From Heptranchias perlo (taxonomy: Eukaryota): a stretch of 64,000 bases of DNA. The notes under the pieces were generated by a model. The model saw nothing but the letters and a program-made list of their open reading frames with translations, was not told where the DNA came from and searched no databases. Made by a program: the position numbers and the translations under genes. The stretch covers positions 7,130,001-7,194,000 of the forward strand of contig NC_090348.1 of the NCBI RefSeq assembly GCF_035084215.1. Direction: 5' to 3'. Numbering within the stretch: the stretch's first letter is position 1; every line of letters starts with the position of its first letter. Below, piece after piece: positions 7,730 through 8,136 of the stretch.

Positions 7730-8136
7730 TTTTTTAAAAAATCACTCCGTATAGAGGCGTTGCTGGCAAGGCCATTTCATTGCCCATCCCTAGTTGCCCT
7801 TGGAGAAGGTGGTAGCAAATTGATTGAACTGAGTTGCTCGCTTGGCCACTTCAGAAGGTCATTAAGAGTCAACCTGTGGGACTGGAGTATAGGCCAGATC
7901 AGGTAAGGACTGCCAGGTTTCTTCCCCTAGAGGGCATTAGTGGACCAGTTGGGTTTTTACGACAATGCAACAGCTTCACGGTCACTTTACTGACACCAGT
8001 ATTTTTATTTCCAGATTTATTTATTTTACCATGAATTCAAATTCTCAAACAAAAATTTGAACTCGTGTTCGCTGGATCATTAGTGCAGGCCTCTTGATTA
8101 CTAGTCCAGTAACATAATGATTACATTACTGTACCC
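7730..8136 (-). mobile_element. tRNA-derived SINE sharing its 5' head/body and 3' tail with the LINE at 61366-64000/55151-57655
   Basis: Minus strand reads GGGTACAGT..TTACTGGACTAGTAATCAAGAGGCC..GAGTTCAAA..CTGGTCCACTAATGCCCTCTAGGGGAAGAAACCTG..TCCTTACCTGATCTGGCCTATA..CTCAGTT then CCACCTTCTCCAAGGGCAACTAGGGATGGGCAATG..CCTTGCCAGCAACGCC. Confidence 0.8.

Follow-up and report, generated by a model that had tools for sequence, protein, structure and literature searches.

Introduction

In the passages on its origin, Wang et al. (2019; PMC6740152) describe Persaeus as a short internally deleted element (SIDE) of the lepidopteran long interspersed element (LINE) Zenon, which arose by repeated internal deletion and has no RNA polymerase III (Pol III) promoter. 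Where Kojima (2018; PMC5786205) treats the bodies of short interspersed elements (SINEs), parts from LINE 5' ends are reported only for the RTE and Vingi clades, with the head added after the deletion. Two shark SINEs, HE1 (a V-SINE with the partner LINE HER1) and SacSINE1 (a Deu-SINE with an L2 tail), are described in sections of PMC3747384 and PMC5499810. Zenon LINEs without open reading frame (ORF) 1 and with poly(A) tails are recorded in the Zenon sections of Stuart et al. (2026; PMC13343379) for five elasmobranchs, coelacanth and hagfish, and a passage of a whale shark preprint (10.1101/443036) notes CR1-Zenon. Here, we analyzed 64,000 nt of the shark Heptranchias perlo (GCF_035084215.1, NC_090348.1, positions 7,130,001 to 7,194,000, forward strand), the whole of which we call the window, and focused on a short element at 7729-8136. 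We suggest that this element is probably, though by no means surely, an internal-deletion derivative of an elasmobranch Zenon that carries a Pol III head.

Structure of the Short Element

The initial annotation had read this locus as a SINE in which the head and body of a LINE are joined to the last ~80 nt of the same LINE, and its coordinates proved right. A sensitive BLAST self-comparison of the window aligned the minus-strand segment 8136-7827 with 61366-61694 (230/331 with gaps, E 2e-37), and 7813-7756 with the LINE tail at 55238-55180 (50/60, E 5e-9). The local scores, 191 for the 5' part and 73 for the tail, were far above the maxima of 31 and 26 obtained in 1000 shuffles each. When gap columns were excluded, 244 of 319 columns were identical to the LINE copy at 61366, hereafter copy A (67/90 in the spacer; the counts for head and body are in Table 1). 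The self-comparison detected this short copy as the sole short form in the window.

The 5' homology begins at 61366 as annotated; its end had been placed at ..CTCAGTT, and we found that it extends 15 nt more, to ~61709/7812. Reading these 15 nt as tail was rejected, with 7/13 matches versus 11/15 to a published linker (by eye). The short copy retains the LINE linker as far as the GCT triplet at which the LINE frame opens, and the body-tail junction joins LINE ~61709 to 55238 with an overlap of 2 nt. Its 3' tail is common with a LINE and it is short and non-coding, as in SINE2 elements. Both of its ends are homologous to the ends of one LINE, as in SIDEs of the Persaeus type. The annotation had taken head and tail from one LINE, and in fact two separate copies were compared, copy A for the 5' part and copy B for the tail; they represent one family, because only 108 of 1879 aligned positions differ.

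The LINE has a single frame with apurinic endonuclease (APE) and reverse transcriptase (RT) regions and lacks ORF1. Copy B ends in a run of ten A (55161-55152), and A-runs are also found on both older 3' fragments. Copy B lies inside another abundant repeat, within its 3' end (flanks 55081-55150 and 57656-57790), which is presumably a CR1-like tail. A tblastn match that would extend copy B to 57791 was discarded, since that DNA belongs to the older repeat into which B inserted. In a search restricted to proteins of 775-2210 aa, the best 120 of 2051 matches were mostly APE-RT proteins of ~935 aa, at up to 47%; the closest of those listed have 934-948 aa, at 45-46%.

The 5' End of Elasmobranch Zenon

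We compared by eye the first 400 letters of each of the 10 Zenon consensuses in Table S2 of PMC13343379, and all statements on the consensuses below refer to these letters. The head, body and linker of 61366-61800 open all seven elasmobranch consensuses, namely those of white shark (CarCar_), whale shark (RhiTyp_), catshark (ScyCan_) and stingray (HypSab_) and three of spiny dogfish (SquAca_). Head and body were seen in none of the three hagfish and coelacanth consensuses. The Squalus consensuses are closest to the LINE of the window. The published elements likewise lack ORF1 and carry poly(A), and their length is 3244-3314 nt, versus 3244 nt for copy A plus the end of copy B. As judged from this match, the window LINE is an elasmobranch Zenon of the CR1 group, ~3.3 kb long, and the RTE and Vingi clades are ruled out. 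The consensuses show the tRNA-like head and 147-nt body to be the regular Zenon 5' end in sharks and a ray, and not a chance fusion.

Table S3 of the same paper gives denominators of 612, 1419 and 2313 for three families, which we read as long copies examined. Its main text contains 'tRNA' 0, 'promoter' 0 and 'SINE' 1 times, and it takes up neither the head and its boxes nor the start-codon problem and short derivatives. Our searches of full-text literature found no account of the shark Zenon head, its short derivatives or a fold resembling those of internal ribosome entry sites (IRESs); subscription papers, Repbase/Dfam and bioRxiv supplements lay outside these searches and may hold one. In paper full texts the body motif occurred only in two unrelated plant papers. 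The exact motif had 0 loci in metagenome, viral and genome contig collections, which hold little animal DNA and are uninformative on other deuterostomes. Protein scans of viral contigs gave no matches, in a collection that is likewise poor in animal DNA.

Contig Depth and Body-to-Tail Joints

Four runs of the 23 listed were used, as contigs only, which were placed on 55000-62150 at a likeness of at least 80%, a level below which old copies may fall. Run X1 has unique flanks identical to those of the window, and the two are perhaps not independent. Summed contig depth, which is no copy number, was 1.93M over the body and 1.59M/1.98M over the next two ORF bins in organism A. The corresponding values were 0.62M and 0.51M/0.46M in organism B, and 0.83M and 0.68M/1.05M in organism D. 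Toward the LINE 3' end the depth climbs to 3-11M, a pattern that 5' truncation would produce, and most values in the unique flanks are <120. The run guessed to be RNA showed a higher body depth (40.7k versus 7.9k and 7.6k); this difference was not used, as contig depth cannot rank expression.

The initial annotation had named one observation that would speak against it, that LINE-linked copies of head and body be rare singletons. We found otherwise in two places: all seven elasmobranch consensuses start with head and body, and in the raw data of three organisms the body is about as deep as the next 460 nt of ORF. A one-off SINE-LINE chimera at 61366 is ruled out by the consensuses and the depth together.

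Among the 15 joints listed of more than 16,000, three lead from body to tail. Joint 61697/55223 was found in 5, 1, 3 and 2 contigs of the four runs, joint 61659/55226 in 5, 4, 3 and 1 contigs, and joint 61632/55261 in 1 contig of 1 run. Thus, several species contain such short forms, which are a minority and have various breakpoints. The empty form of the copy B site was present in contigs of all four runs (joints 55141/55148 to 57655).

The Putative Pol III Head and a Possible Avoidance of T4 Runs

Box A is kept in 7/7 elasmobranch consensuses and box B is exact in 6/7. The match of the head (61367-61421) to the Rfam tRNA model was weak and under the gathering score (16.8 bits, E 1.1); at gathering score Rfam gave 0 matches in the 64-kb window, and ARAGORN called no tRNA. 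A second hairpin of the head keeps its pairing but differs in sequence between Squalus-type and galeomorph consensuses, and copy A, the short copy and the Squalus consensuses share one variant (by eye). We also observed by eye that this hairpin (61393-61432 region) resembles a duplicate of the anticodon arm in the Squalus-type consensuses, copy A and the short copy.

A run of four T (T4) is the stop signal of vertebrate Pol III. In a passage of PMC4494074, oligo-T was applied as this criterion. On the sense strand we found no T4 in 2635 nt of copy A and none in 2503 nt of copy B, versus 16 and 10 on the antisense strand. Over the element, 3.2 kb of sense strand lack T4. T4 is absent from the visible part of 7/7 elasmobranch consensuses and present in 3/3 non-elasmobranch ones. 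As controls, all 11 of 11 other LINE loci together had 137 T4 in 24,277 nt (139.6 expected), and four other LINE pieces within the window had 7 in 1,972 nt (7.1 expected). It is moderately probable that the Zenon head acts as an internal Pol III promoter, and that the sense strand avoids T4 to permit read-through of the whole element.

Several points weigh against this explanation. Only 3.9 (A) and 3.2 (B) T4 would be expected, and synonymous shuffles gave P values of 0.08 and 0.05. Phenylalanine codons TTT/TTC were used 3/15 times (P 0.07). Copies A and B are not independent, and the codon set of B overlapped itself and was double-counted. The control LINEs are richer in T (0.25-0.36 versus 0.20) and distant (26-46% identity). 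The initial annotation had spoken of a Pol III-headed LINE. Its boxes stand, exact in copy A; the runs used consist of contigs, and the term is a reading of the sequence.

The Frame without AUG and a Candidate IRES-like Fold

Copy A has no in-frame AUG upstream of the endonuclease. A stop precedes GCT 61705, where the frame begins; from there to the endonuclease, 84 nt downstream, it runs through a basic stretch, which has one stop in this decayed copy. Four of the five '-1' consensuses keep GCT in the ORF frame across linkers that measure 21, 18, 21 and 21 nt, and none of these four has a stop within the 24-37 visible codons; in the two shorter Squalus consensuses, the GCT/linker region is degraded. 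In copy A the middle triplet AGC of a hairpin loop complements this GCT, which lies 12 nt past the stem. Hairpin and GCT are both present in the two window copies (A and short) and in 6/7 consensuses. The chance of the pattern is ~4% per 60 nt and ~1.5% in frame, and it was absent upstream of 5/5 control LINE loci with a 5' region. A candidate for pseudoknot II (PKII) of four pairs forms 3/4 in copy A and 4/4 in the short copy, and L1.1 motifs were not identified in these two sequences. The loop-GCT pairs displayed no covariation.

From these features one could propose that translation of an uncapped RNA begins without AUG at the 3' edge of the body, through loop-GCT pairing as in dicistroviruses, a step that on the present comparison we regard as doubtful. 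Six observations count against it. SquAca_Zenon-1 is one base short in an A-run and off frame. Under a loose rule of our own, defined after the fact, 128 kb (both strands) contain 94 instances of the hairpin-plus-triplet pattern. Of 74 structure cells in the two window copies, 66 pair and one change is two-sided, no better than in shuffles. Folding z-scores were weak (head -1.9, body -0.9). No Rfam IRES family matched at E<=10, with the decayed copy A as the query. An out-of-frame AUG lies ~20 nt past GCT in 6/7 consensuses.

In Table S3 of PMC13343379 the longest elasmobranch Zenon ORF2 has 584-747 aa, versus ~950 codons open from GCT. The short published ORF2 would fit an AUG-dependent caller that misses the N-terminus.

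Origin of the Short Element

The best explanation can be put in four steps. As a rule, this ~3.3-kb single-ORF Zenon begins, in sharks and a ray, with a tRNA-derived head (boxes A and B) followed by the conserved 147-nt body. The head would serve as internal Pol III promoter, and T4 avoidance would let Pol III transcribe the whole element. The uncapped RNA might then start without AUG at the 3' edge of the body, with loop-GCT pairing as in pseudoknot I. Finally, loss of everything between the 5' region and the last codons, whether by deletion or by a template jump, would leave the promoter and the tail recognised by the RT, that is, a ready-made SINE, which the Zenon protein could copy in trans and which would have arisen more than once with different breakpoints. 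That short forms come from repeated internal deletion of the LINE is well supported and, in our opinion, highly likely. The full account, with an autonomous Zenon transcribed by Pol III, translated without cap, AUG or initiation factors via an IRES-like fold and shedding SINEs by single deletions, which would make the SINE body a translation element inherited from a LINE, is unlikely, even more so than AUG-less translation considered by itself.

At one time the head must have been acquired from a tRNA or a SINE. The body may have come together with it or be an old 5' UTR of Zenon. L001, a Zenon-like invertebrate relative in a metagenome-assembled genome (MAG), probably as stray eukaryotic DNA, has an AUG, 27 T4 runs, poly(A) and no boxes. 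Because this relative lacks the boxes, the Zenon head is, by this one case, a derived trait. The initial annotation had left two directions open, internal deletion of the LINE or capture by the LINE of its own SINE. The former fits the short copy better, because the LINE linker is kept up to the ORF start and several different breakpoints exist. The capture would require that a tRNA-SINE with a Zenon tail pre-existed, that Zenon took its head and body by template switch and that the short copy descends from it. The absence of such a head from hagfish, coelacanth and invertebrate relatives implies a capture at some time, and Zenon LINEs drive ordinary SINEs in bivalves, according to the relevant part of PMC11481361. 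Divergence from copy A is ~24% for the short copy, versus ~6% between copies A and B; the short copy is thus old and may be older than the present LINE, a point against its derivation from that LINE. A paired change of the short copy relative to the LINE (A-T versus T-A, 61561/61633) looks as if it came from a separate master. However, body and tail are joined at three or more other breakpoints, not all of which can represent the donor, the 5' part of the short copy ends at the frame-opening triplet, and its head variant is of the Squalus type, not of the ray/galeomorph type. The body also matched no published SINE body in three searched supplements, those of PMC5786205, PMC7245038 and PMC4824008 (for the last, file 2 of 2), beyond single exact matches of 8-9 letters, one of them in the CORE part of OegopSINE; the comparison with the conserved-body superfamilies (CORE, V, Deu, Meta, UCON3) consists of these short matches. 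A SINE-first origin is quite improbable.

It is somewhat unlikely that the locus is a single accident, made by one template jump at insertion or by later deletion of a full LINE, with no amplified family behind it. The junction of the short copy is not among the 15 joints listed of more than 16,000 and may be a one-off, which counts against an amplified short form; the joint contigs are few (1-5 per run), body depth barely exceeds ORF depth in DNA, and there is no second short form in 64 kb. Two other junctions, however, recur in three organisms, the joint table is capped, covers only copies of at least 80% likeness and may miss old ones, and the paired differences from the LINE (one pair only) suggest a master of its own. 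The polymerase is a separate question. Type 2 Pol III transcripts start just upstream of box A, and the consensuses begin within a few bases of one point just before box A, as such transcripts would. LINEs are generally regarded as Pol II transcripts, as a passage of PMC5786205 has it, and Zenon could be one as well, with the head as a promoter that binds TFIIIC or serves Pol II, or with host read-through, and with frameshift or reinitiation from the out-of-frame AUG; only the short forms would then be made by Pol III. The T4 statistics are modest, and the AUG opens an overlapping frame of ~45 codons in 6/7 consensuses. Nevertheless, copy A lacks that AUG, and in four consensuses linkers of 18 and 21 nt preserve the frame of GCT, which lies upstream of the AUG. 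We consider Pol II transcription of the LINE the less likely case, and internal deletion of a Pol III-headed Zenon the better explanation of the short element.

Other Features of the Window

The features of the short element and of the Zenon copies are collected in Table 1. At 3855-5964, a 750-nt inverted repeat, 96% identical, surrounds a minus-strand frame of 324 codons (4243-5217). The frame had no Pfam match, and we take it to resemble the RT end of a Penelope-like element with a GIY-YIG nuclease. Copies of the ends of the inverted repeat form a 214-nt palindrome at 40353-40566, and the ends also occur at 58581-58668. A SINE family of ~450 nt, 66-79% alike, occupies 2452-2912 and about ten other places and is unrelated to the short Zenon element. 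It is presumably SacSINE1 (Deu type), and we assume that both HE1 and SacSINE1 are distinct from the short Zenon element. A purine-rich tandem array with a period of 34 and 28 copies lies at 22060-23050. Outside the window, LINEs in symbiont MAG bins, likely host DNA, have motifs before the endonuclease (L005:120-140, L006:1800-1860), which we take to be 2A-like (cf. PMC3894237).

Table 1. Coordinates of the short element and of the Zenon copies in the window.
Feature	Position	Strand	Remarks
Short bipartite element	7729..8136	minus	tRNA-like head, body, LINE 3' tail and A-run; ~400 nt
tRNA-like head, decayed	8047..8136	minus	61/82 columns identical to LINE head
Box A and box B sites of short-copy head	8128-8118; 8062-8054	minus	box A with 3 mismatches; box B runs into T5
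Body of short copy	7812..7952	minus	homologous to LINE 61551-61709, 116/147 columns; small deletions of 5 and 7 nt
Anticodon-like hairpin and GCT of short copy	7814..7849	minus	hairpin 7849-7833, loop triplet AGC 7842-7840, GCT 7816-7814; both kept
Body-to-tail junction	7812..7813	minus	AC (2 nt) assignable to both sides; from LINE ~61709 to 55238
Tail	7729..7811	minus	LINE last ORF codons, 3' untranslated region (UTR) and A-run
Possible target-site duplication ATGTAT	8141..8146, partner 7729-7724	minus	weak; 4 nt off 5' end
Zenon LINE copy A	61366..64000	plus	5'-complete, ends at window edge; ORF broken by frameshifts and stops
Box A, exact match	61374..61384	plus	copy A
Anticodon-arm-like hairpin	61393..61409	plus	copy A head
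Box B, exact match	61439..61447	plus	copy A
Conserved 147-nt body	61561..61707	plus	candidate structured translation element
Bulged hairpin	61667..61692	plus	5-bp stem, 7-nt anticodon-like loop (AGC 61679-61681)
GCT triplet	61705..61707	plus	complements loop; endonuclease frame; stop three codons upstream
APE endonuclease region, broken	61789..62600	plus	copy A
Reverse transcriptase	63224..63967	plus	Pfam RVT_1, E 2.7e-39
Zenon LINE copy B	55152..57655	minus	5'-truncated; stop 55218-55216; 3' stem-loop; poly(A); target-site duplication ATGAT
Older Zenon 3' fragment	12845..13107	plus
Older Zenon 3' fragment	50027..50268	plus

Implications

The proposed course would be a one-step birth of a SINE: a LINE first acquires a Pol III head and then drops its middle, whereas in the published model for Bov-tA this order is reversed. 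It would also allow the origin of a SINE body to be read directly. If the parent is truly a Pol III transcript, it breaks the division of LINEs to Pol II and SINEs to Pol III, and translation of an uncapped RNA must be solved. The mimic of anticodon and codon, if true, would be a specific solution to this and would place a type 6-like IRES in a vertebrate genome. For annotation, ORF callers based on AUG would truncate Zenon, and repeat libraries could split the family into 'SINE' and 'LINE'.

Comparison with Known Systems

Type 6 IRESs, those between the genes of dicistroviruses, in the descriptions given by PMC4132737 and PMC13273307, are structured RNAs of 120-260 nt with an anticodon-codon mimic before a non-AUG first codon. 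The Zenon body, with 147 nt and a like local geometry, resembles them; in contrast, only the three loop-codon pairs of Zenon are invariant, Rfam gave no match, and PKII is a candidate. In these descriptions the type 6 IRESs are confined to viruses, and the word 'retrotransposon' occurs 0 times in PMC13273307. Luke et al. (2013; PMC3894237), in one passage, speculated on such IRESs in non-LTR elements.

The shark SINEs HE1 and SacSINE1 share hosts, tRNA heads and LINE tails with the short element. However, their partner LINEs are others according to the sections of PMC3747384 and PMC5499810 cited above, and the comparison rests on these descriptions. Bov-tA, SINE2_Gav and SINE2-1_ACar, as described in the SINE passages of PMC5786205, likewise consist of a tRNA head, a LINE 5' part and a LINE 3' part. 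Their head is absent from the partner LINE, which is of the RTE or Vingi clade, whereas the shark LINE bears the head and belongs to CR1/Zenon. The initial annotation had named mainly RTE and Vingi for LINE-derived 5' parts. This background was incomplete, since Persaeus (PMC6740152), without a Pol III head, is an internally deleted insect Zenon.

Persaeus comes closest, and its description lists the 5' end, the last ORF codons and the 3' UTR of Zenon, several origins and short repeats at the breakpoints. Persaeus differs in having no tRNA homology and a variable, unrelated middle, whereas the parts of the shark element are joined directly and its boxes come from the LINE 5' end. SIDEs of the Persaeus type have neither tRNA homology nor a Pol III promoter, and the head of the short copy is homologous to a head with boxes A and B. 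The element is thus a bipartite non-autonomous LINE derivative whose promoter comes from its parent; the kind is already known, and the source of the promoter is new.
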